Notes: a model not told the origin generated them from the sequence alone. A stretch of 64,000 bases of DNA from Candidatus Fermentithermobacillaceae bacterium (GCA_018052455.1 JAGPNE010000004.1:52882-116881); one strand, 5' to 3'. Positions 2,590 through 15,850 are shown, counted from the stretch's first letter. Numbers and translations are program-made.

Positions 2590-4011
2590 ATGCCTTCTAC
2601 GTTTACCGCTATTGAAATTGGGAAATCAGCTCTACTTGCCGCAAGACGTGCAATGGATACCACAGGGCACAATATAGCCAATGCTGCTACGCCAGGATAT
2701 TCGCGACAGCGGGTGGTACTTGAACCCATTATCCAGAGAATTGACATAAACTCAGGCACATCTGGACTTGGAGTCAAAGTAACTGACGTTAACCGTATAA
2801 GAGATCCGTTCATAGACGGGGTGTTGCGCAATGAGCAGGCAAAAGGAGCGAGTTTTGAAGCTCAGAAGGAGGTTCTTGACCATCTGCAGATAGTCTTTGC
2901 CGAACCCTCGGATTCGAGCATGAGGACGTTTGTAGATTCTTTCTGGGCGGCGTGGCATGATCTTGCATCAGAACCGCAATCCCAGGCAGCGAGGGCACAA
3001 CTCATGGAAACCGGCCGGTCCGTGGCAGATATGTTCAAACACCTAGGAAGCCAGATAGATTCTCTGGTCGGAGACATTGAAGGCGCCATAGATTCTACTA
3101 TAAACACGGTGAATCTTCTCAGCGACAAAATCTGTTCTTTGAACACCGAGATTTCAAGGGGATTATCCCGAAACGAGCCTGTCGGAGATCTAATGGATAG
3201 GCGAGACCTGCTTATAGATGAACTAACGCAGCTTACCGGTGCAACTGTGAGCTATCTGGACGAAGGTACCGTGAAAGTTAGCATCGGGGGAATAGCGCTT
3301 GTCGATAAGTACAAGTCGTATCCCATTTCAAGTTCAATAACTTCAGCGGGAGTTAAGTTTTTCGTAGTTACGGGCCCTGCAAGTAGCGACAAGATAGAAC
3401 TGAATTTGGTTTCTGGAACACTGGGAGGGCACAAAGCTGCAAGAGATGAAATCGCTCTCAAATTCAGGCAAGAACTCAATACTATTGCGACACAGTTTTT
3501 TGAAGGGATAAACAATATTCACCAGACAGATCCTACTACTGGGCAGGTAGATCCTTCATACATCAAGTTCTTCGAATTTACCGCTTCAGACGTCCTTTCA
3601 ACGATAAAAGTAAACGATGTAATAGTAAATGACCCGGCAAATATTCGGGCTTCTGCAGGAACGGATCCTTTGGATAGTACTATCGCCCACGCCATTGCTG
3701 ACTACATAGAGGGCACGCCTAACAGTTTCATTATTGATGACTCCGGCGGCAATTTTACAGAGAAATGGATGTCGATTGTGGGCAAGTTGGGAGTTGAGGG
3801 TCAGAAAGTAGAGATCGGGCATTCAACTCAGGAGCTACTAGTGAAGGAACTATCAAACAGGAAAGACTCGGTAAGCGGGGTGTCACGTGACGAGGAAATA
3901 ACCGAACTCATACGCGAGCAGCACGCTTTCAATGCGGCTAGCAGAGTCATAACCGTTGCGGATGAGATGCTCGATACGATAATTAACCGGATGGGAATGA
4001 GTGGCAGATAG
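2590..4011 (+). CDS. flgK: Flagellar hook-associated protein FlgK
   Basis: IGKSAL.A...AMDTTGHNIANAATPGYSRQ N-terminus, VSGVSRDEE...EQHAFNAASRVI C-terminus; ATG 2590 follows GGAGGTG. Confidence 0.95.
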   Translation: MPSTFTAIEIGKSALLAARRAMDTTGHNIANAATPGYSRQRVVLEPIIQRIDINSGTSGLGVKVTDVNRIRDPFIDGVLRNEQAKGASFEAQKEVLDHLQIVFAEPSDSSMRTFVDSFWAAWHDLASEPQSQAARAQLMETGRSVADMFKHLGSQIDSLVGDIEGAIDSTINTVNLLSDKICSLNTEISRGLSRNEPVGDLMDRRDLLIDELTQLTGATVSYLDEGTVKVSIGGIALVDKYKSYPISSSITSAGVKFFVVTGPASSDKIELNLVSGTLGGHKAARDEIALKFRQELNTIATQFFEGINNIHQTDPTTGQVDPSYIKFFEFTASDVLSTIKVNDVIVNDPANIRASAGTDPLDSTIAHAIADYIEGTPNSFIIDDSGGNFTEKWMSIVGKLGVEGQKVEIGHSTQELLVKELSNRKDSVSGVSRDEEITELIREQHAFNAASRVITVADEMLDTIINRMGMSGR

Positions 4012-4044
4012 TTTAGGATCCACAGGTAAAGGGGGCAGGTTTTT

Positions 4045-4854
4045 ATGCGAGTAACAGATCTCACCATTCAGCGGAACTTTCTTTACAACATATTCGGTGT
4101 CGAAAAGAGATTAGGAGAGCTTCAGGATATGGCTTCCTCAGGGAAATCTATTACTAGGCCTCAGGATGATCCGGTAGGTTCGGAGAAATCCATATCACTA
4201 AGACACGATCTTTGTGTGAACGACCAGTATCTACGCAATATCGATAAAGCCAAGACGTGGATGTCTCAAACAGAACAGGCGATGGCCCACGCAACGTCAG
4301 TGTTGTCGAGAGTACACGATCTGGCTCTTTATGGGGGAACCGGGACTACACCAGACGAGGCAAGGAATGCAATCGCCGCAGAGGTTAGTCAGCTTAAGGA
4401 AGAGTTATCTTCAGTATTCAATACTACAGTTGACGGTCGTAACCTTCTTTACGGAACTATGCCTGTGTGGAGGCTGGGTACGGACGTAACGCTAACATGC
4501 AAGGGAATCGAAGCAATTATGACTGACGTAAATGCCTACATGGATCAGTTGGAACAAGGACTACAGACTTCGAACGTAGATGATATCGCAGCTGCTGCCG
4601 AAGGGCTAGATCAGGCGTTGGACAAGGTGTTATCTCACAGGGCTGAAAATGGCGCAAAACTTCGAAGATTAGATACTTTGGAAGAAAAATCGAACGATAT
4701 GTATGTCGAGTACAAAAGGGTATTATCCAATGTGGAAGAGGTTGATCTCACTGAAGTAGTTGTAAAGCTCATGTCTCAGCAGATGGCTTACCAATCTGCG
4801 CTTGCCGTTGGGGCAAGGCTGATTCAACCTAGTCTCCTGGACTATCTGCAATAG
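4045..4854 (+). CDS. flgL: Flagellar hook-associated protein FlgL
   Basis: MRVT...SSGKSITRPQDDPVG; C-terminal EEVDLTEVVVKL..QQMAYQSALAVGARLIQPSLLDYL. Confidence 0.92.
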   Translation: MRVTDLTIQRNFLYNIFGVEKRLGELQDMASSGKSITRPQDDPVGSEKSISLRHDLCVNDQYLRNIDKAKTWMSQTEQAMAHATSVLSRVHDLALYGGTGTTPDEARNAIAAEVSQLKEELSSVFNTTVDGRNLLYGTMPVWRLGTDVTLTCKGIEAIMTDVNAYMDQLEQGLQTSNVDDIAAAAEGLDQALDKVLSHRAENGAKLRRLDTLEEKSNDMYVEYKRVLSNVEEVDLTEVVVKLMSQQMAYQSALAVGARLIQPSLLDYLQ

Positions 4855-4905
4855 GTTCTTGCTTGGTTCTGATAGGGTACGTCACGTTGGGCAGGAGGGA
4901 TTCAT

Positions 4906-5358
4906 GTGGAGTTTCCCACTAAACAGTTTGGAGTCATACATATAAGAGAAGACCAGGTCATAAACTTCCCAGAAGGTCTTATTGGCTTTCAATCATGCAA
5001 GAGGTTCTTTGTTTTCGACCTCGACGAATTTGGGGTTTTCAAATGGCTCCAGAACCTGGACGACGAGTCTTTGGGGTTCGTAATCCTAGACCCTAGACTC
5101 TTGTTTAAAGACTACGATCCCGAGTTTGTCGCAAGAGATCTAGAGATTCTGGAGGCTTCCAGCCCTGGGGATCTCGTACTCCTTTCGGTAGTTACTCTGC
5201 CGGAGGAGGTAAGAGATATGACCGTCAATCTGCAAGCACCTCTTGTGATAAACCCGTCGAAACGTCTAGGCCGGCAGGTAATAACCATTTCGCAGGAGTA
5301 TAGTACTAAGCACAACGTATTCGTGCATGTAAAGAATCTCATGAAGAGGACGGGCTAG
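4906..5358 (+). CDS. fliW: Flagellar assembly factor FliW
   Basis: T.QFG...I.FPEGLIGF, WLQ, DP, MTVNLQAPLVIN motifs. Confidence 0.93.
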   Translation: MEFPTKQFGVIHIREDQVINFPEGLIGFQSCKRFFVFDLDEFGVFKWLQNLDDESLGFVILDPRLLFKDYDPEFVARDLEILEASSPGDLVLLSVVTLPEEVRDMTVNLQAPLVINPSKRLGRQVITISQEYSTKHNVFVHVKNLMKRTG

Positions 5359-5360
5359 AT

Positions 5361-5615
5361 ATGCTTGTTCTATCAAGGAAGCAAGGCGAAGCAATACTGA
5401 TAGGTGACGACATTGTCATACGCGTTACAGAGATAAAAGGCAGAGGTTCTAAGGCGTTTGTTAAGCTGGGGATTGAAGCTCCGTCCGGAACCAAGATCTT
5501 GAGGGAAGAAGTAGAGATCGAGATTGCCACCGAGATGGCTTTAGCGAAAGATCCTGTTTTGGACTTGGAACGTCTGAAAAGCGAGTTTTTGAAAAGAGAA
5601 GATAAGGAAGAATAA
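5361..5615 (+). CDS. csrA: Carbon storage regulator CsrA
   Basis: MLVLSRKQGEAILIGDDI...VKLGIEAP...ILREE; adjacent to fliW. Confidence 0.93.
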   Translation: MLVLSRKQGEAILIGDDIVIRVTEIKGRGSKAFVKLGIEAPSGTKILREEVEIEIATEMALAKDPVLDLERLKSEFLKREDKEE

Positions 5616-5784
5616 GGCTAATCTCTTCTCCCCTACATACGATTACATTGTTGAAGGAACTATGAAAGAACTTCTAGACCTGAAACCTTCTTGCAACTTG
5701 TGTTTGCTGGGAACTAGGATTCGGGACAAAGATTCGGGCGATAGGGTTACCTGGGAACTATACAGGCATTTTGGGGGTGTAAGC

Positions 5785-8538: not shown

Positions 8539-9054
8539 ATGGAGATCAACGTAAGAGGTAAGAACATGAACGTAAGCCCCGCACTTCGGGAATATGCAGA
8601 GAAGAAATTGTCCAAACTGGAGAAATACGTGAGGCAGGATTCTTGTTTGTGCCAGGTGATGTTTTCAACTCAGCGGGGCAAGTATGTGGTTGAAGTTACG
8701 CTACCTCTGAATGGCATGATTTTGAGGGCGGAAGAGTCGGCTCAGGATGCGTTTGCCTCAGTAGATCTGGTTGTGGAGAAACTCGAGAGGCAGCTGGAGA
8801 AATACAAGACGAGACTGCTTAAGCGCGATAAGCAAGAGCAGCGATTGTCAGAGCCTGAGGAAGAACTCGAAACAGGACAGATTGTAAAGGTCAAGAGATT
8901 TGCTATGAAACCTATGATGCCTGAGGAAGCAGTAATGCAAATGGAGCTTCTAGGTCACGATTTCTTTGTTTTTGCAAACGGCGAAACAGGTTTGGTTAAC
9001 GTTATTTACAGACGCAAAGACGGCAACTTCGGTCTGATTGAACCTGAGATTTAG
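8539..9054 (+). CDS. hpf: Ribosome hibernation promoting factor (long HPF, YvyD type)
   Basis: MEINVRGKN...ALREYAEKKL, AEE...DAFASVDLVVEKLERQL.KYK, C-terminal KPM.PEEA..QMELLGHDFFVF. Confidence 0.95.
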   Translation: MEINVRGKNMNVSPALREYAEKKLSKLEKYVRQDSCLCQVMFSTQRGKYVVEVTLPLNGMILRAEESAQDAFASVDLVVEKLERQLEKYKTRLLKRDKQEQRLSEPEEELETGQIVKVKRFAMKPMMPEEAVMQMELLGHDFFVFANGETGLVNVIYRRKDGNFGLIEPEI

Positions 9055-9096
9055 AGTTTCTTAAGAGATTTGTGTATGTTAAGCGGGGGAGCCAGC

Positions 9097-10251
9097 TTGG
9101 AACAACCTAAGGTTACTGCAGTTATGTTTGAAGGCGGTAAACCACAAACCTCTCTAGATGCTAAAATCAAGAATATCCGGAAAGAGATCGCCTTGGACAC
9201 ACTGTCCAAGCTGGCTTTAGCGCCGGAAATCGACGAAATCATACTAGCAACAAATTATGAGGATCTTGCGCACGAGGCATCCGAGTTTGCCATTGTTGAC
9301 TTGGAGTCAAATGACATTAAGTTTCATTTCGGGCGCAGACTAAGAGAGATAATCGTCAACTATCGCTTGGATAACGTGTTGTACATGGGGGGAGTAGCTG
9401 CCCCCCTTGTGTATTCGGAGGAGTTTAACCAAGTTGCCCTCACGCTTAAGCAAACCAGAAATACAGTGATAATGAACAATGTCCAGTCTGCAGACCTCGT
9501 TGCGTTTACGCCCGCAAGGGCAATTGATGAAGTCGAACTGCCCGATAACGACAATGTACTGGGCAATCTGCTCCGTGAGATTGGTATGCGGCGGCTTCTT
9601 ATTCCTAATTCAGGTAGGGTGAACTTCGATATAGACACTCCAACTGACATCTTAATCCTTGGTCTGCACCCTCACTGCGGGGAAAGATCATCAAGGATCA
9701 TAGGCTCTCTGGATTGGCCTACTCAGAACCTGTGTGAGGCCCTGAGAGTACTTAGGGAAGAGTCGCGAGAAATAGCGGTGATAGGACGAGTTGGACCCGC
9801 GGTCATACAGTATATAAACTCGAACATGGTTCACAGAATGCGGGTGTTTTCCGAGGAGAGAGGTATGAAGGCCTTGGGCCGAGAAGAAAGAGGGCAAGTC
9901 GTATCGTTGTTGGGTTTCATGGTAGATGAGGTAGGCCCGAAGAGGTTTTTCGAGTACCTATCGCGTGTCTGCGACCTAGCTTTTATCGATACAAGAGTGA
10001 TGTTTGCTCATCTTGAGGGCCAAGTTTCGGATTGGGACAGGTTTTACTCAGACCTGGGCCAATATCAAGTAATCCAAAATGAGTGGGTTAGGGAGTTTAC
10101 GAAGAGTGCTGTTGAATGCCCAATTCCGGTTGTGCTCGGTGGACATAGCCTCGTAGCTGCCGGCCTTTGGATTATGGCGGAAATGGTCGTAAAGGAGAAA
10201 GAGGATTCAGGATATCGTCATAACACCGCAATTATGACCCCTTATAGCTGA
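9097..10251 (+). CDS. Uncharacterised protein with N-terminal CofC/nucleotidyltransferase-like (GT-A fold) domain
   Basis: FDIDTPTDI motif, IILATN, FHFG..L; TTG start after GGGGGAG; C-terminal domain not recognised. Confidence 0.5.
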   Translation: MEQPKVTAVMFEGGKPQTSLDAKIKNIRKEIALDTLSKLALAPEIDEIILATNYEDLAHEASEFAIVDLESNDIKFHFGRRLREIIVNYRLDNVLYMGGVAAPLVYSEEFNQVALTLKQTRNTVIMNNVQSADLVAFTPARAIDEVELPDNDNVLGNLLREIGMRRLLIPNSGRVNFDIDTPTDILILGLHPHCGERSSRIIGSLDWPTQNLCEALRVLREESREIAVIGRVGPAVIQYINSNMVHRMRVFSEERGMKALGREERGQVVSLLGFMVDEVGPKRFFEYLSRVCDLAFIDTRVMFAHLEGQVSDWDRFYSDLGQYQVIQNEWVREFTKSAVECPIPVVLGGHSLVAAGLWIMAEMVVKEKEDSGYRHNTAIMTPYS

Positions 10252-10283
10252 TTGGAACACTTTTTCAATCGGGAGTGTATAAA

Positions 10284-10925
10284 ATGGCCGGCAAGGATTA
10301 TACAGCTAGAGACTACGAGGATATCATCAAGAAGATAAATGACGTTTTGGATTGCCGAGTTTCGACCGGTGAGAACGACAGTATCGATGAAATCCATATT
10401 GTGGCACGGATAGGTCGGTCGCCTAAATACGTGGTACGAGATGTAGAATCTGCTGTTTTGGCGGCATCCGGGGAGAAAATCGACAGAACAAGGATCTCGA
10501 TTGTTCAAATGGCCGGTAATGAACCGAGCTTTACCTCCAGACCTAGACTTGTAGCTGTAGAACTTGTGACCAGTGAGTCTTCGGCTGTAGCCAGAGTAAA
10601 ACTCTCCTTGGGAGAGGAGGTTCGTCTAGGAGAGAGTGAAGGGATTGCCACGCCTACTAGGTGGGATTGGTTCTGCGCGGAAGCTACTGTCAATGCGCTG
10701 AGCCAGTTTTTCAGAGAAGGTGTGAAGATTTCTTTGAGGGACGTAAACGTATTTGATTCGAGGTCTCTGCGAACAGCGGTGGTAGCTCTGTGTGTCATTG
10801 AAGACGGCAGAGAATTGGTGCTAACGGGTTCGTGTCCTGTTTTATATGATGAAAGAGAAGCGGTAGTAAAGGCAACTCTTGATGCGGTCAATAGGAGGTT
10901 TCCGATGCTAACGGCAAATAGCTGA
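10284..10925 (+). CDS. Conserved hypothetical cytoplasmic protein; C-terminal half resembles a LeuA-type regulatory fold
   Basis: IDEIHIVA...RSPK.VVRDVES...RISIVQ, then two beta-rich repeats ending AEATVNAL and VKATLDAVNR. Confidence 0.6.
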   Translation: MAGKDYTARDYEDIIKKINDVLDCRVSTGENDSIDEIHIVARIGRSPKYVVRDVESAVLAASGEKIDRTRISIVQMAGNEPSFTSRPRLVAVELVTSESSAVARVKLSLGEEVRLGESEGIATPTRWDWFCAEATVNALSQFFREGVKISLRDVNVFDSRSLRTAVVALCVIEDGRELVLTGSCPVLYDEREAVVKATLDAVNRRFPMLTANS

Positions 10926-10952
10926 AATTAAATGAATTTTGCACCACTTATA

Positions 10953-10981
10953 GAAGGACTAATTGAAGCAGCGTTGAACAA
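10953..10981 (+). promoter_or_regulatory. Sigma-H-like promoter upstream of the small peptide gene
   Basis: GAAGGACTA-11 bp-GTTGAACAA (AGGA-N17-GAAC; consensus AGGA-N17/18-GAAT). Confidence 0.4.
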
Positions 10982-10989
10982 ATTACTAA

Positions 10990-11178
10990 GCCGACAGCCT
11001 GGTGACTTTCATCAGCGGAGTTAGATGAATCTGATCTAGCGGTTCAGATTCAGCCAGTTGACAGGGGGTTTTCAGGTGAGCAAGAAGGTTCTTAGGGTGA
11101 TTTTCGCCATCCTCACGCTCCTTTTGGCCGGAGCAGCGAACTTTCAACTAGGCTAAAGTTTCTGTCAGGGCTGTCGGC
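10990..11178 (+). ncRNA. Putative structured RNA enclosing the peptide ORF
   Basis: gccgacagcc 10990-10999 pairs with ggctgtcggc 11169-11178; ttgacagggg 11058-11067 pairs with tttctgtcag 11159-11168; perfect 9-bp hairpin 11026-11052. Confidence 0.5.
11076..11156 (+). CDS. 26-aa signal-peptide-like precursor MSKKVLRVIFAILTLLLAGAANFQLG (missing from ORF track)
   Basis: GTG start 7 nt after AGGGGG RBS, TAA at 11154-11156; basic n-region, hydrophobic h-region, LAG-A c-region. Confidence 0.8.
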   Translation: MSKKVLRVIFAILTLLLAGAANFQLG

Positions 11179-11200
11179 CCGGTCACGAGGTGTTCTAGCA

Positions 11201-12451
11201 TTGAACAAAGAGATTAAGGCCTTCGATGTCTATTTGTGGGGAATAGTTTGCCTCGGTATGGTCTTACTTTTTATGAATATCCCTGTCTTCGAGGGCTTGC
11301 TTCACTTCCTGGAAGTGGGTTTTCTCGGGGCTCTCATTGCTTTTGGTGAGACCCTGGCAATCCCATTTCCCAAGGGTAAAGGTACCGCATCTGTCGCTGC
11401 GCCCCTGATTTTTACTGTTATTGTTCTCCATGGTCCTGCCATTGGCATGTGGGTTGCAGCATTAGCTACTCTACGCAAAAGAGATCTGGCAGGGGAGGTT
11501 CCCATACGTCTGGTTCTTTTCAACAGAGGGATGCTAAGCATATGTGCCTATGGGTTCTCGACGGCCTACAGTCTTTTGGGAGGCGAGTTCGGATTTCTCG
11601 AGTTTCCTTCGGGTCTTCTAGGTTTCATATTGGCAGCAACTGTTTACACCATACTGAATGCGGTCATAATTGGAGAGGCACTATCGCTTCAGACCGGCCT
11701 GCCATTTTTGACCATCTGGCGCCAGAATATAGTCTGGATGCTACCTAACATGTTTGCTTTGTTTCCTCTGGGTGCCCTTATGGTTGTTGTCACAAAGCAA
11801 GCCGGGCCGCTTGTACTTCTACTGTTCTATTTGCCCTTGGTCGTAACTAAGATGTCTCTACAGAAATACGTGGATCTGAAAGAGACCTATGGCGAAATGG
11901 CTCAGGCTCTAGGTACGGCTGTAGACGCGAGGGATCCATATACCCAAGGACATTCGATAAGGGTATCGGAATACTCTGGGCTATTAGGAAAAGAAATGGG
12001 ATTCGATGATGAAGAGGTTGATTTGCTGAAATATGTTGCGCTTCTGCACGATGTAGGCAAGGTGGGCATACCCGACAGCATTCTAAAGAAAACAGACTAT
12101 TTTACATACGAAGAATATCAAGAAATGAAGCGGCATGTTGATATAGGTGCAGATATCATTGGAGCTATGAAGATATTAGGCAAAGGCGAGGAATGGGTAA
12201 GATATCACCACGAAAGATGGGACGGCACAGGTTTCCCCAAGGGCTTACGTGGCGATGAAATACCTCTAGAAGCACGTATTATTGCCTGCGCGGATGCTTT
12301 TGACGCTATGACTACAGATAGGCCGTACAAAGAGAGAATGGACTACGAGGAAGCCAGAGAAGAGATTGTAAGGTGCAGCGGAACCCAGTTTGATCCCAAA
12401 GTGGTAGAAGCTATGCTCAAAGTCGTAGATGAAAAGATTTTGAGGAAGTGA
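11201..12451 (+). CDS. Membrane-anchored HD-GYP cyclic di-GMP phosphodiesterase
   Basis: Multi-TM N-terminal ~220 aa; ARDPYTQGHSIRV, LLHDVGK, HHERWDGTGFP, ADAFDAMTTDRPY. Confidence 0.88.
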   Translation: MNKEIKAFDVYLWGIVCLGMVLLFMNIPVFEGLLHFLEVGFLGALIAFGETLAIPFPKGKGTASVAAPLIFTVIVLHGPAIGMWVAALATLRKRDLAGEVPIRLVLFNRGMLSICAYGFSTAYSLLGGEFGFLEFPSGLLGFILAATVYTILNAVIIGEALSLQTGLPFLTIWRQNIVWMLPNMFALFPLGALMVVVTKQAGPLVLLLFYLPLVVTKMSLQKYVDLKETYGEMAQALGTAVDARDPYTQGHSIRVSEYSGLLGKEMGFDDEEVDLLKYVALLHDVGKVGIPDSILKKTDYFTYEEYQEMKRHVDIGADIIGAMKILGKGEEWVRYHHERWDGTGFPKGLRGDEIPLEARIIACADAFDAMTTDRPYKERMDYEEAREEIVRCSGTQFDPKVVEAMLKVVDEKILRK

Positions 12452-12455
12452 TCCA

Positions 12456-13040
12456 TTGTTCCTAACCGTTGTAGCTGTTTCCCTTGTACTTGGCCTGGTT
12501 TCGGGAGGCAAGATCTCTCATCTTGGTGACATAGATCTCGATAGGTTAGGGTGGATTGTGGGGTCCTTTTTAGTAAAGATTGGATCGAACAAGTTATTGA
12601 GCGGGAGGGTGGAGCCATCTTCCAAGGTTTGTCTTGCTCTAAGTCTAGTCACCTACCTCATGCTGTTTTACGGTCTTTGCCCAAATCTAAGATTCCCTGG
12701 CTTTCGCGTGCTTACCTTCGGGACTTTTTTGAACTTTATTGTCATACTAGCCAACGGAGGTAGAATGCCTGTCGATTTGTCCCCACTCGGAGCTGATGTC
12801 TTAAATAGCCAAATACCCGTGCTCGTCTCTAGCTTCACCCACTGTGAGATGGGAGATCGCACAAAGTTAAGATGTCTGGCTGACATATTTTCCTCTGAGT
12901 TTCTTTCCAAAACACCTACCACTTTCAGCCTGGGTGACATACTCATGGCCGTAGGGATCTTCGCGTTCATAATGAATGTGATGCACGCGGGTTTTCTCGA
13001 GGGACAAAAGAATGGTAGAATTAAGGGCAATGAGAGCTAA
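12456..13040 (+). CDS. DUF5317-type membrane protein, putative signal-peptidase-II-like aspartic peptidase
   Basis: GG...L, GTFLNFIVILANGGRMPV, LADIF (D143), FSLGDILMAVG (D161). Confidence 0.7.
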   Translation: MFLTVVAVSLVLGLVSGGKISHLGDIDLDRLGWIVGSFLVKIGSNKLLSGRVEPSSKVCLALSLVTYLMLFYGLCPNLRFPGFRVLTFGTFLNFIVILANGGRMPVDLSPLGADVLNSQIPVLVSSFTHCEMGDRTKLRCLADIFSSEFLSKTPTTFSLGDILMAVGIFAFIMNVMHAGFLEGQKNGRIKGNES

Positions 13041-13090
13041 GGAAAGCTACCTGACCGCTTTTGAGTTTGCACGCAGAAAAGGAGATATGT

Positions 13091-15850
13091 ATGTCAATTT
13101 TGAAGAATCTTTTCAACTCCAACGACCGGGAGCTCCGAAAAATAGGACCAACTGTCGATTCAGTGGCAAGATTTGAGCCTACTTTTGAGCGAACCTCCGA
13201 CTCGGACCTCCAGCGCAAGACAGGTGAGTTTCGGGAACGTATTTCCAGGGGTGAGCCCATGGACAAAATTCTTCCCGAAGCCTTTGCGGTTGTTAGGGAG
13301 GTCTCCAGACGTGTACTCGATATGCGGCATTTTGACGTACAAATACTAGGTGGTGTTGTTCTTCATCAGGGACGGATTGCAGAGATGCAAACTGGTGAAG
13401 GGAAAACGCTTGTGGCGACTCTTCCGGCATATTTGAACGCGATAGGAGGCGCTACCGTACACGTAGTTACGGTCAACGATTATCTGGCGAAACGAGACAG
13501 GGAATGGATGGGTCAAATATATAGGTTTCTAGGCCTGGATGTAGGACTTGTGATCCCTGGTATGGAAGTGGCGCAGAAGAAGGCCTCGTATTCCTGCCCT
13601 ATCATCTACGGCACAAATACAGAATTTGGTTTTGACTATCTTAGAGATAATATGGCTTGGCGGAAGGATGACCTTGTTCAAAGCCCCCTAAACTACGCCA
13701 TAATCGACGAGGTTGACTCAATTTTGATAGATGAGGCTAGAACCCCTCTCATAATTTCTGGCCGCGGTGAGGGCACTACAGACAAGTACATAAGATTTCG
13801 GGATCTTGCTCGTATGCTAAAACGAGATAAGCACTATACAGTTGACGAGAAGGCGAAAACGATTGTCTTGACTGATGAAGGCATTGAGAGAACAGAAGAA
13901 TGGCTGGGTATAGATGACCTTTCAGACGAGGGAAACATAGGGTTGGAACACTATGTTAAGCAGGCTTTAAGGGCTAAAGAACTGATGCATCGCGATGTTG
14001 ACTACGTGGTGAAAAACGGAGAAGTTTTGATAGTTGATGAATTTACCGGCCGTATTCTTGTGGGCAGAAGATTTTCAGATGGTCTTCATCAGGCAATTGA
14101 AGCAAAAGAAGGCGTAGAGATAAAAGAGGAAAGTGATACTCTTGCTACCATAACTGTCCAGAACTTTTTCAGGATGTACGACAAACTTTCGGGCATGACA
14201 GGAACTGCCGCGACCGAAGAACCAGAATTTCTAGAAATATACGGCTTGGACGTTGTATGTATTCCGCCAAACAAGTCCCTAATAAGGACCAATATGCCTG
14301 ATTCAATTTGGAAGACCGAAGGTGCCAAGTTCGAGGCTGTCGTAGAAGAAATTGACCGTATGCATCAAGTCGCGCGGCCTGTCCTTGTGGGCACACGTTC
14401 TGTGGAGAAATCGGAGATGCTGTCGGCAATGCTCAAAAGGAGAGGCATTGACCATGAAGTTCTTAACGCCAAGCACCACGAACGTGAAGCGGAAATAGTG
14501 GCTCAGGCTGGAAGAAAAGGCTCAGTGACCATTGCAACTAACATGGCTGGGCGGGGAACTGATATACTCCTTGGCGGCAATCCTGACTTCATGGCGCGTT
14601 CAACTCTCAGAAAAGAAGGATATGATGCTGACGTGGTTTCTGTCGCTGCGGAGAAAGTCCTTCCCCAAGCAATGCTTGCGAGAATAGAGGCAGGCACAAC
14701 TGACGAGCATATTGAAGCGATTCTTGCGGCCAGAGACAGGTACAAAGAGCTTTTTGAGCAGTTCAAGAAGGTGACTGATGAAGAACATGAGGAAGTTGTA
14801 TCTCTGGGCGGTCTGCATGTGCTTGGTACAGAACGTCATGAAGCCCGGCGTATAGATAACCAGCTGCGAGGTAGGGCTGGTAGGCAGGGAGATCCGGGCT
14901 CATCGAGATTCTATCTCTCCTTGGATGACGAACTTATGCGGCTATTTGGGGGAGACCTCATAAGCGGTGTTATGGAGAAAGTAGGGTTCTCGGACGACGA
15001 GGCCATAGAACATCCTTTGATCACCAAGTCTGTAGAAACGGCTCAGAAGCGTATTGAGGCGCACAACTTTTCCATAAGGAAAAATGTATTAGAATACGAC
15101 AACGTTCTGAACAAGCAGCGCGAGGTCATATACTCTCAAAGACGCCAGGTACTTGAGTTTGATGACCTTTCAGATATTGTAAGGGGTATGATTGCAGGAA
15201 CAGTAGAAAGAGGCTTTGGTGTTTTCTGGAATCAGGGTGAAAGGAACCATGAGGCAGATACAGATGGGCTTGTTTCTTATCTGAAAGAGTTAATGCCGGC
15301 TGCAGACTTTAGAAAAGTCCTAGATTCTGCTGGTTCGAGACAGGCTGCTCTAGACGCAGTCATGGAGGTTTTCAGCGAGGGCTATAAGGAAAAGGCGGAG
15401 ATGTTAGGGCCCAATCTAAACGAGGTACAGCGGCTGATACTTCTTAGAGTGGTTGACCAAAAATGGATTGACCAGTTACGTGCAATGGAGGGTCTGCGTG
15501 AAGGCATTGGCTTAAGGGCGTATGGTCAAAGAGACCCTCTGCTTGAATATCAAAAAGAAGGCTATGACCTTTTTCAGAACATGATTGAGAACATTGAGAA
15601 AGATACTGTCGCCTATTTCTACAGGGTAACCGTATCCAAAGAAAGAGGCGTGCGAGCTGCCGGAGATGGCCAAGGAGCCGCAGGACCGGTAAGGGTAATA
15701 AGACTTACGGGGCCTCAATCTCAAGATACCGAGGGCCGGGAACAGGTAAGACCTGGGCCAGTTAAGTCCGGGAAAAAGGTGGGACGAAACGATCCCTGCC
15801 CATGTGGTAGTGGAAAGAAGTACAAGAACTGTTGTGGAAAACTTGGATAA
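13091..15850 (+). CDS. secA: Preprotein translocase ATPase SecA
   Basis: AEMQTGEGKT, IIDEVDSILIDEARTPLIIS, TIATNMAGRGTDI, C-terminal GRNDPCPCGSGKKYKNCCG. Confidence 0.98.
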   Translation: MSILKNLFNSNDRELRKIGPTVDSVARFEPTFERTSDSDLQRKTGEFRERISRGEPMDKILPEAFAVVREVSRRVLDMRHFDVQILGGVVLHQGRIAEMQTGEGKTLVATLPAYLNAIGGATVHVVTVNDYLAKRDREWMGQIYRFLGLDVGLVIPGMEVAQKKASYSCPIIYGTNTEFGFDYLRDNMAWRKDDLVQSPLNYAIIDEVDSILIDEARTPLIISGRGEGTTDKYIRFRDLARMLKRDKHYTVDEKAKTIVLTDEGIERTEEWLGIDDLSDEGNIGLEHYVKQALRAKELMHRDVDYVVKNGEVLIVDEFTGRILVGRRFSDGLHQAIEAKEGVEIKEESDTLATITVQNFFRMYDKLSGMTGTAATEEPEFLEIYGLDVVCIPPNKSLIRTNMPDSIWKTEGAKFEAVVEEIDRMHQVARPVLVGTRSVEKSEMLSAMLKRRGIDHEVLNAKHHEREAEIVAQAGRKGSVTIATNMAGRGTDILLGGNPDFMARSTLRKEGYDADVVSVAAEKVLPQAMLARIEAGTTDEHIEAILAARDRYKELFEQFKKVTDEEHEEVVSLGGLHVLGTERHEARRIDNQLRGRAGRQGDPGSSRFYLSLDDELMRLFGGDLISGVMEKVGFSDDEAIEHPLITKSVETAQKRIEAHNFSIRKNVLEYDNVLNKQREVIYSQRRQVLEFDDLSDIVRGMIAGTVERGFGVFWNQGERNHEADTDGLVSYLKELMPAADFRKVLDSAGSRQAALDAVMEVFSEGYKEKAEMLGPNLNEVQRLILLRVVDQKWIDQLRAMEGLREGIGLRAYGQRDPLLEYQKEGYDLFQNMIENIEKDTVAYFYRVTVSKERGVRAAGDGQGAAGPVRVIRLTGPQSQDTEGREQVRPGPVKSGKKVGRNDPCPCGSGKKYKNCCGKLG

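Follow-up and report, generated by a model that had tools for sequence, protein, structure and literature searches.

Genomic organization of the locus

We analyzed a stretch of DNA of 64,000 nucleotides (nt) from a Candidatus Fermentithermobacillaceae bacterium (GCA_018052455.1, JAGPNE010000004.1:52882-116881), referred to here as the window and numbered from its first letter. The study concerns a locus that encodes a cytoplasmic protein of 216 amino acids (p216), a small open reading frame (ORF) whose product we call the micro-protein, a membrane protein with a MASE9 sensor and an HD-GYP domain, and a membrane protein of the DUF5317 family. All four genes lie co-oriented on the + strand of the window, as stated in the original prediction, a note that read them as a peptide-pheromone system controlling cyclic di-GMP (c-di-GMP). 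It represents an ancient module that is inherited vertically and has five parts, namely p216, a structured leader RNA, the micro-protein gene, the MASE9-HD-GYP gene and the DUF5317 gene. Both the conservation of the module and its tie to c-di-GMP turnover are supported, and no description of it was found in the literature searched, in agreement with the earlier view that it is undescribed.

The genes of the module, with spacers of 151 nt between p216 and the small ORF and of 44 nt between the small ORF and the HD-GYP gene, are located in the window as follows:

10275..10925, + strand: p216, GTG start, cytoplasmic protein of 216 amino acids (the ATG given as its start in the original prediction is at 10284)
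11063..11068, + strand: AGGGGG, Shine-Dalgarno (SD) sequence of the small ORF, 7 nt ahead of its GTG, read from the sequence
11076-11156, + strand: small ORF, GTG start, 26 codons, 81 nt; product VSKKVLRVIFAILTLLLAGAANFQLG
11201..12451, + strand: MASE9-HD-GYP gene, 416 amino acids, about eight transmembrane (TM) segments (residues 1-216) and the HD-GYP domain (240-401)
12456..13040, + strand: DUF5317 gene, 194 amino acids, starting 4 nt past the HD-GYP stop

The genome assembly (1.54 Mb, 92% complete) contains three GGDEF genes, which shows that the organism makes c-di-GMP. Its nearest public relatives are Candidatus Fermentithermobacillaceae metagenome-assembled genomes (MAGs), and farther carriers of the module include Symbiobacterium and Peptococcaceae MAGs.

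Conservation of the small ORF

With 81 nt, the small ORF is shorter than the usual limits of gene callers, and its product matched no Pfam family. The original prediction had listed it as a 26-residue frame absent from the ORF track, and its strong SD sequence, coding substitution pattern and conservation identify it as a real gene. Among relatives, each p216-HD-GYP spacer examined held a small ORF at the same place and in the same frame, encoding 24-29 residues, and in nearly all orthologues GGGGG or GGAGG was found about 4-9 nt ahead of the GTG or ATG start. Across 46 distinct small-ORF sequences, entropies at the three codon positions were 1.02, 0.55 and 1.59, and the synonymous share of codon differences was 36% in frame versus 9% and 7% in the shifted frames. 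By this pattern of substitution, the small ORF behaves as a genuine gene under purifying selection at the protein level.

A six-frame profile search was performed on 301 genomes drawn evenly from the phylum, which are the base of all small-ORF and DUF5317 counts given here. The conservation on which the original prediction depended was found in 88 of them, 86 carrying the small ORF once and two twice (90 matches), with open frames of about 20-90 codons at all matches except the weakest. Its frame, length, SD sequence and stop position were kept in the 80 loci that we fetched, which come from many genera.

Linkage of the module genes across the phylum

DUF5317 was present in 101 of the 301 genomes, in 109 copies. 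The small ORF lay 1361-3225 nt upstream of a same-strand DUF5317 gene in 72 of its 90 matches, and in 62 of these cases the distance was 1361-1668 nt, which corresponds to one HD-GYP gene between the two. Seventy of the 72 loci were fetched, and all 70 showed the order small ORF, MASE9-HD-GYP (at times two such genes), DUF5317; p216 preceded the small ORF in 68 of them, usually with hpf before the module and secA after it. Taking all 80 small-ORF loci, p216 was found in 77, and two of the three exceptions are truncated by the contig end. Thus the small ORF and TM-HD-GYP gene that the original prediction had expected in DUF5317 neighborhoods are both upstream of 72 of the 109 DUF5317 copies.

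The module occurs as a single copy in all but two of the 88 genomes and at a conserved core-genome position; it is also found away from secA (e.g., L156, L160, L161 and L164). In seven loci (L222-L228) the order is p216, small ORF, HD-GYP, secA, with DUF5317 located on another contig or, in one genome, not found. In turn, the small ORF is missing upstream of 37 DUF5317 copies, which stand after a MASE9-HD-GYP gene, before other MASE9-type genes with HD-GYP or GGDEF output, or alone. Of the 101 genomes with DUF5317, 20 had no small-ORF match. A fusion of the small ORF with the HD-GYP gene was looked for among the fetched loci and not found. The tightest linkage is therefore that of p216, the leader with its small ORF and MASE9-HD-GYP, while DUF5317 is a frequent yet separable partner.

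At two loci, L258 (G227) and L261 (G119), DUF5317 stands alone between hpf and secA, and neither HD-GYP, p216 nor the small ORF was detected there.

Sequence of the micro-protein

Throughout the phylum, the micro-protein follows the consensus M-x-(K/R)-(L/I)-x-K-x-L-x-A-L-x-(A/T)-L-(V/I)-L-A-G-G-A-x-(F/Y/W)-(K/R/Q)-(W/L/I), with an optional final G. It is laid out as two N-terminal basic residues, a hydrophobic core of about 17 residues, an LxLAGGA block and 4-6 aromatic or basic residues at the end. Residues L14, L16, A17, G18, G19 and A20 are near-invariant (54-67 of 68 orthologues), the L-x-L-A-G-G-A block being kept in 60-67 of 68; the window copy has an LLLAGAA block and an NFQLG end. Mean pairwise identity was 51% for the micro-protein and 50% for the catalytic HD-GYP domain, compared to 35% for p216, 33.5% for DUF5317 and 29% for MASE9.

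Pheromone precursors usually diversify. The end of the micro-protein reads AANFQLG in the window. Within the genus it is found as AANFQVG, sister genera have AA[NC]FQ[LM]G, and family-wide it is [NC]FQ[LM]G or x-W-Q-x-G. The original prediction of a secreted pheromone, AANFQLG, with quorum-type control is not in line with an end that is near-identical in genus and family and that belongs to the most conserved protein of the module; nor does the tail diversify (NFQLG versus NFQVG within the genus) in the manner of the co-varying peptide tails that had been expected.

The lipobox pattern [LVI][ASTVI][GAS]C is not matched, as L-A-G is followed by Ala in the window and by Gly in 67 of 68 phylum orthologues, with no Cys. 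Indeed, the window micro-protein contains no Cys at all and its sole Ser is residue 2, outside the C-terminal part; a Cys at position -5 is found in some genera only. The likeness to a lipobox without its Cys is real, but the block could equally be a helix-packing motif. These features depict a putative lone membrane helix that packs through a face of small residues and is anchored at the interface, unlike a precursor whose released end carries specificity.

The MASE9-HD-GYP protein

The output domain matched HD_5 (PF13487) at residues 240-401 (E=2e-36), its 125.7 bits being well over the cut-off of 27.2. The MASE9 domain (PF20972) scored 23.9 bits in the window copy, just below its cut-off of 24.3, and 29.0, 35.2, 41.0 and 46.1 bits in orthologues and paralogues, which places the protein in this family. 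LLHDVGK and HHERWDGTGFP (the latter at 12211-12243) are both present, so that the HD and HHE..DG motifs, and with them the predicted catalytic motifs of HD-GYP, are intact. The Tyr of the GYP motif is replaced by Phe (GFP) in all 26 orthologues examined at the level of the family Fermentithermobacillaceae; across the phylum, GYP is found in 72 of 78. This Tyr contacts c-di-GMP (bioRxiv 10.1101/2021.11.05.467447).

MASE9 has been described as a domain of eight TM segments with a probable in-membrane ligand and no known natural input (Galperin and Chou, bioRxiv 10.1101/2021.11.05.467447). HdgA of Streptomyces venezuelae is the only member studied experimentally (bioRxiv 10.1101/2021.11.05.467447); it resides in the membrane, is weakly expressed and gave no developmental phenotype (PMC6205966).

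DUF5317

The DUF5317 protein matched PF17248 with 105 bits against a cut-off of 25 (E=4.7e-30) and is the sole copy in the genome. Its AlphaFold2 model (predicted local distance difference test, pLDDT, 89.4) shows a beta-rich loop, about 60 residues long, that precedes the last of five TM helices; this loop would be outside the membrane, assuming that the charged C-terminal tail is cytoplasmic. Among 105 copies, N93, N100, M104, P105, D143, S158, G160 and D161 are invariant or nearly so, with one exception each at N100 and M104, and these residues are kept with or without a small ORF or HD-GYP gene nearby.

The original prediction had seen two LspA-like Asp motifs in this protein. Two invariant Asp residues (D143 and D161) do exist, and hhalign of DUF5317 against LspA of the same clade set them on the catalytic Asp pair of LspA; however, the probability of this alignment, which spans 55 columns, was just 15%, and the fold gave the LspA label no support. 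A Foldseek search of the PDB with the DUF5317 model returned a best E-value of 0.57 and no LspA entry among 32 hits, a DUF5317 profile search of PDB sequences gave no match, and Peptidase_A8 (PF01252) was matched in DUF5317 neither at the Pfam nor at the clan level. Homology with LspA was therefore not retained other than as an unproven resemblance; the genome has a genuine LspA gene at another site (G000:C16). Together with the DUF5317 copies and fusions that occur without a small ORF, these results also speak against the proposal that DUF5317 is the membrane peptidase of the small-ORF product.

HD-GYP and DUF5317 are fused in a single protein of 600 amino acids in L221 (G181, 3622-5424), in which MASE9, HD_5 and DUF5317 were all recognized by Pfam. 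In the Rosetta-stone sense, this fusion links the two large membrane proteins to each other. In ten metagenomic proteins of 587-698 amino acids (P0016-P0025), DUF5317 is fused to an MFS permease (PF05977, PF07690), and it is therefore not restricted to c-di-GMP enzymes. At L232, L233, L255 and L202, DUF5317 paralogues adjoin genes for TM-GGDEF (in two genomes of about 7 Mb), TM-PAS-HD-GYP and TM-PAS-histidine kinase proteins. The TM domains of these four match a profile derived from the module, Pfam MASE9 being matched only weakly, in L233, and none of the four has a small ORF. DUF5317 probably has its own conserved catalytic or binding site, and its sequence distribution suggests a portable membrane module and not a dedicated precursor peptidase.

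p216

No Pfam or NCBIfam match was obtained for the window copy of p216, whose family has no name and comprises 4181 clusters at 50% identity; PF08502 was weakly matched by 4 of 17 orthologues. The AlphaFold2 model (pLDDT 90.4) shows an N-terminal beta-alpha-beta unit followed by two beta-beta-beta-alpha units. When compared to the PDB with Foldseek, it resembled the regulatory domain of LeuA (E=1.7e-6) and that of the citramalate synthase LiCMS (1.5e-3). A regulatory role through binding of a small molecule would be the natural inference from this fold.

The leader RNA around the small ORF

RNAalifold applied to the family alignment predicted a long-range helix of 10 bp with compensatory changes (P1), which encloses the small ORF, and a hairpin with a UAGCGG loop (P2). 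Conserved bases surround the small ORF in this alignment, and the interior of the ORF itself lies outside the covarying helices. The elements of the leader in the window are:

10990..10999, + strand: 5' arm of helix P1, GCCGACAGCC (RNAalifold)
11014..11020, + strand: AGCGGAG motif, unpaired, invariant in the family alignment
11027..11051, + strand: hairpin P2, arms GAATCTGA and TCAGATTC, loop UCUAGCGGU
11169..11178, + strand: 3' arm of helix P1, GGCTGTCGGC, 13 nt past the small-ORF stop and 23 nt before the HD-GYP start

Both helices were present in the minimum-energy fold of the window leader, whose energy gave z = -1.67 relative to shuffled sequences. Over 78 phylum loci, P1 arms paired with their own partners at -25.0 kcal/mol, compared to -16.1 for arms exchanged between loci and -17.0 for a reversed control, and none of 10000 permutations reached the observed value. 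For the P2 arms, the corresponding energies across the phylum were -10.9 versus -6.1 kcal/mol, a difference that again 0 of 10000 permutations reached. From the family alignment we built a covariance model, which recovered 45 leaders; in their alignment, which is fitted to that model, 87% of the cells were paired versus 60% after shuffling, and 170 cells had changed on both sides versus 54. All 10 pairs of P1 change on both sides, and sliding the partner by one column lowered the covariation score from 0.485 to less than 0.10. As judged from these alignments, the leader has two covarying helices. The motif AGCGRAG was found in 64 of 80 phylum leaders and in none of their 80 reverse complements, and UAGCGR in 55 of 80.

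Several established RNA or promoter elements were considered and rejected. A known riboswitch or other RNA upstream of HD-GYP was not found in Rfam 15: no match in the window reached its gathering score, nothing meaningful appeared at E<=10 in 10800-11300, and 18 other leaders gave none. P1 does not have the form of a plain intrinsic terminator, since there is no conserved U-tract 3' of its arm and its loop is about 170 nt long. The AGCGG repeats would match GGA sites of the CsrA type poorly. A sigma-H-like promoter, AGGA-N17-GAAY (10955-10979), located 5' of P1, is present in the family alignment but in only 8 of 80 phylum loci. The window form at 10955-10979 is AGGA-N17-GAAC and that of the family AGGA...GTAGAAT; the former resembles the sigma-H promoter consensus.

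Neighboring genes

The module is flanked in the window by the following genes:

8539-9054, + strand: hpf, upstream
9070-10251, + strand: p393, upstream, 393 amino acids, with a KdsB-like nucleotidyltransferase N-terminal region
13061-15850, + strand: secA, downstream, 20 nt past DUF5317

On the + strand, the order is comFC, flgM, flgN, flgK, flgL, fliW, fliD, fliS, fliT, hpf and p393, followed by p216, the small ORF, HD-GYP, DUF5317 and secA. The arrangement comFC ... fliT-hpf-secA is the classical Bacillota order, as in B. subtilis. Hence, the flagellar neighborhood noted in the original prediction (flgM to fliT) is real but is not specific evidence of a link to motility, because the module is inserted in the ancestral comFC-flg-fli-hpf-secA order. 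The gap between fliW and fliD (5358-5660) would suit csrA in size and position, as in B. subtilis, and is a candidate site for this gene.

No Pfam match was obtained for p393. Its N-terminus is KdsB-like (cytidylyltransferase), the similarity being weak (E=0.003), and it is conserved with 62% mean column identity and many invariant residues (e.g., SEERGMKALGR). This gene travels with hpf and not with the module: it occurs in a minority only of the fetched small-ORF loci, and hpf-p393-secA is found in Symbiobacteriaceae loci without the module.

Two further observations concern flanking regions in relatives. In L058 (G029, 3789-5414), a class-level relative, p393 is followed by a stop and then by a short in-frame DUF5317-like ORF, without p216, the small ORF or HD-GYP. 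In L201, a phylum relative, a cspA thermoregulator (RF01766, 86.7 bits) is located at 1435-1825, upstream of the module.

A model for the module

The reading that we favor, tentatively and with somewhat less than even confidence, is that the micro-protein resides in the membrane as an accessory subunit of the MASE9 sensor. The complex would include DUF5317, and the supply of the micro-protein would be under the control of p216 and the leader. The micro-protein would insert as a single helix, probably with its N-terminus inside and its C-terminus outside, and stay in the membrane. Its small-residue face (A10, A/T13 and A17-G18-G19-A20) would pack on the eight-TM MASE9 domain in a complex that may also hold DUF5317, and this packing would determine how active the HD-GYP domain in the cytoplasm is, and hence the level of c-di-GMP. 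Physical coupling of MASE9-HD-GYP and DUF5317 would be in line with the L221 fusion and with the DUF5317 paralogues beside other MASE9 proteins, both of which support it.

On the cytoplasmic side, p216 probably relays a metabolite signal, whether the leader RNA or the enzyme receives it. P1 would join the 5' region of the mRNA to bases past the small-ORF stop and would therefore couple synthesis of the micro-protein to the control of the downstream genes, either through transcript stability or through expression of HD-GYP and DUF5317. Translation of the leader and formation of P1 should exclude each other, because termination on the small ORF would place the ribosome over the 3' arm of P1.

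Several points weigh against this model. The role as a membrane partner is drawn from hydrophobicity, charge pattern and gene linkage, and the best-conserved block, LAG-G/A, with its resemblance to a Cys-less lipobox, would suit a protease recognition site too. The presence of DUF5317 somewhere in 81 of the 88 small-ORF genomes, most of the exceptions being weak matches, would likewise suit a dependence on processing. MASE9-HD-GYP-DUF5317 pairs occur without a small ORF at L234, L236, L239, L253 and L254, and therefore the sensor does not need it universally. Finally, the GYP motif carries the Tyr-to-Phe change in this family, and phosphodiesterase activity is a prediction.

Alternative explanations

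A second explanation, which we consider unlikely, is that the micro-protein is a substrate and not a partner: DUF5317 would be an Asp/Asn membrane hydrolase that cuts it at LAG|G/A, thereby switching MASE9 in the same cell or freeing a C-terminal peptide that is sensed outside. The polar residues N93, N100, D143, S158 and D161, invariant in the 105 DUF5317 copies, would be in keeping with a hydrolase, and the helix order of the model would put them at the outer membrane boundary if the charged C-terminal tail is cytoplasmic. The coincidence of D143 and D161 with the LspA catalytic pair, the likeness of the micro-protein to a bare signal peptide whose Cys-less lipobox is its most conserved part and the joint occurrence of the two genes described above point the same way. 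However, the alignment with LspA has the low probability already mentioned, Foldseek against the PDB returned neither LspA nor any hit below E=0.5, and the profile search of the PDB was empty. Moreover, the same DUF5317 residues are invariant where there is no small ORF, the protein is fused to HD-GYP and MFS partners, and 20 of 101 genomes carry it without a small-ORF match, unlike a dedicated precursor peptidase.

Of the forms that this explanation can take, a secreted pheromone is the least probable. The piece released would be 4-7 residues long and near-identical in genus and family, with no variation of the pherotype kind, and the 4-6 aromatic or basic residues past LAGGA are typical of a membrane-interface anchor. 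In the seven loci from which DUF5317 has moved away, the small ORF remains with p216 and HD-GYP. The conserved module contains no exporter gene, and its single copy at a core-genome position contrasts with quorum-sensing loci, which are usually patchy and accessory.

It is also conceivable, although we give it rather little credence, that the small ORF acts in cis as a leader peptide. A ribosome translating it or paused at its stop would cover the 3' arm of P1, which begins 1-13 nt past the stop, keep the long-range helix from forming and so tune the stability or translation of the HD-GYP-DUF5317 message; once released, the peptide would serve no further purpose. The small ORF does lie wholly within the covarying RNA domain, with the closing helix beginning just past its stop; its conserved aromatic-Q/K-x-G end, which would be close to the peptidyl-transferase center, is reminiscent of short sensing leader peptides such as the 24-residue TnaC; and small ORF and leader are tied to p216, a possible trans-acting factor. 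In contrast, the entire peptide is under selection, and this extends to its basic N-terminus and hydrophobic core, which an ORF serving for tunnel sensing or purely as a spacer would not need. Furthermore, no conserved U-tract follows the 3' arm of P1, in the window P1 stops 23 nt short of the HD-GYP start and leaves its SD sequence uncovered, and the fold energy of the window leader is just modestly better than that of shuffled sequences (z = -1.67). A secretion monitor for secA of the SecM/MifM/VemP type was rejected separately: 26 residues cannot exit the ribosome tunnel before termination, and the module is also found away from secA.

A further reading, improbable in our judgment, would make the micro-protein, a self-made helix resembling a signal peptide, the long-sought native ligand of a MASE-type sensor. 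Its synthesis would be gated by the new leader RNA, possibly read by p216 as a metabolite-binding protein, and DUF5317, as an Asp/Asn membrane enzyme of orphan fold, would bind it or cut it at the Cys-less lipobox and so switch HD-GYP, the signal being either cell-autonomous or shared between cells. If this were true, the module would be a peptide-operated c-di-GMP switch.

That the frame is open by chance in a non-coding leader of which the RNA alone is functional can practically be dismissed: it has just 26 codons, a GTG start and no entry among automated calls, and it is embedded in structured RNA, but its third codon position is about three times more variable than the second, synonymous differences are enriched in frame (36% versus 7-9%), its frame, length, SD sequence and stop are kept in 80 phylum loci and the covarying helices do not extend into its interior.

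Taken as a whole, the locus offers three genetically linked candidates for the input of MASE9, namely a micro-protein missed by gene callers, DUF5317 and p216, as well as a covarying leader RNA absent from Rfam. Roughly one in four genomes sampled from this large phylum of the Bacillota type carries the micro-protein, which is more conserved than p216, MASE9 and DUF5317. This conservation and spread make it a good test case for small membrane proteins that control second-messenger enzymes, and its gene illustrates what annotation pipelines omit.

Comparison with known systems

No mention of DUF5317 was found in the literature searched, in which MASE9 appeared only in the preprint of Galperin and Chou, and no paper combining HD-GYP with a micro-protein surfaced among the results listed. 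The closest described proteins are MASE9-HD-GYP proteins of the type of Thermotoga maritima TM1467 and Streptomyces venezuelae HdgA, which have the same architecture of an eight-TM MASE9 domain and HD-GYP and the same membrane location. Their descriptions (bioRxiv 10.1101/2021.11.05.467447; PMC6205966) speak neither of a micro-protein gene or a structured leader nor of DUF5317 or p216, and the replacement of GYP by GFP sets the family of the window apart from them.

Systems of the agr type (AgrD/AgrB/AgrC) and the enterococcal sex pheromones, which LspA and Eep cut from lipoprotein signal peptides, share with the module a short hydrophobic precursor beside polytopic membrane proteins, with a lipobox-like LAG in the present case. 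In contrast to the agr type, the window peptide has no Cys and offers neither Ser nor Cys for a thiolactone or lactone ring. The domain scan of the module revealed no AgrB peptidase, histidine kinase or RRNPP receptor; the peptide does not vary among close relatives, unlike those of pheromone systems, and no larger lipoprotein has the micro-protein as its signal peptide. DUF5317 has no demonstrated relation to AgrB or LspA. It resembles LspA (PF01252) in its Asp pair, which is 18 residues apart versus 15 in the LspA of this clade, the second Asp starting the last TM segment within S/N-x-G/A-D. The overall architecture differs, with five TM helices and a loop before the last in DUF5317, compared to four TM segments and a periplasmic beta-cradle in LspA.

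An analogy in function only is that with MgrB-PhoQ and SafA-PhoQ of E. coli and Salmonella, where the proposal is likewise that a tiny single-pass membrane protein binds its sensor at the membrane part and sets the output. There is no sequence relation between these proteins and the micro-protein, and the target here would be a c-di-GMP phosphodiesterase, whereas theirs is a histidine kinase. The micro-protein is also smaller (25-26 versus 47-65 amino acids) and has almost no extramembrane part. Lastly, its gene stands beside that of its putative target, inside a structured leader, and is conserved phylum-wide, compared to the family-wide conservation of MgrB and SafA.

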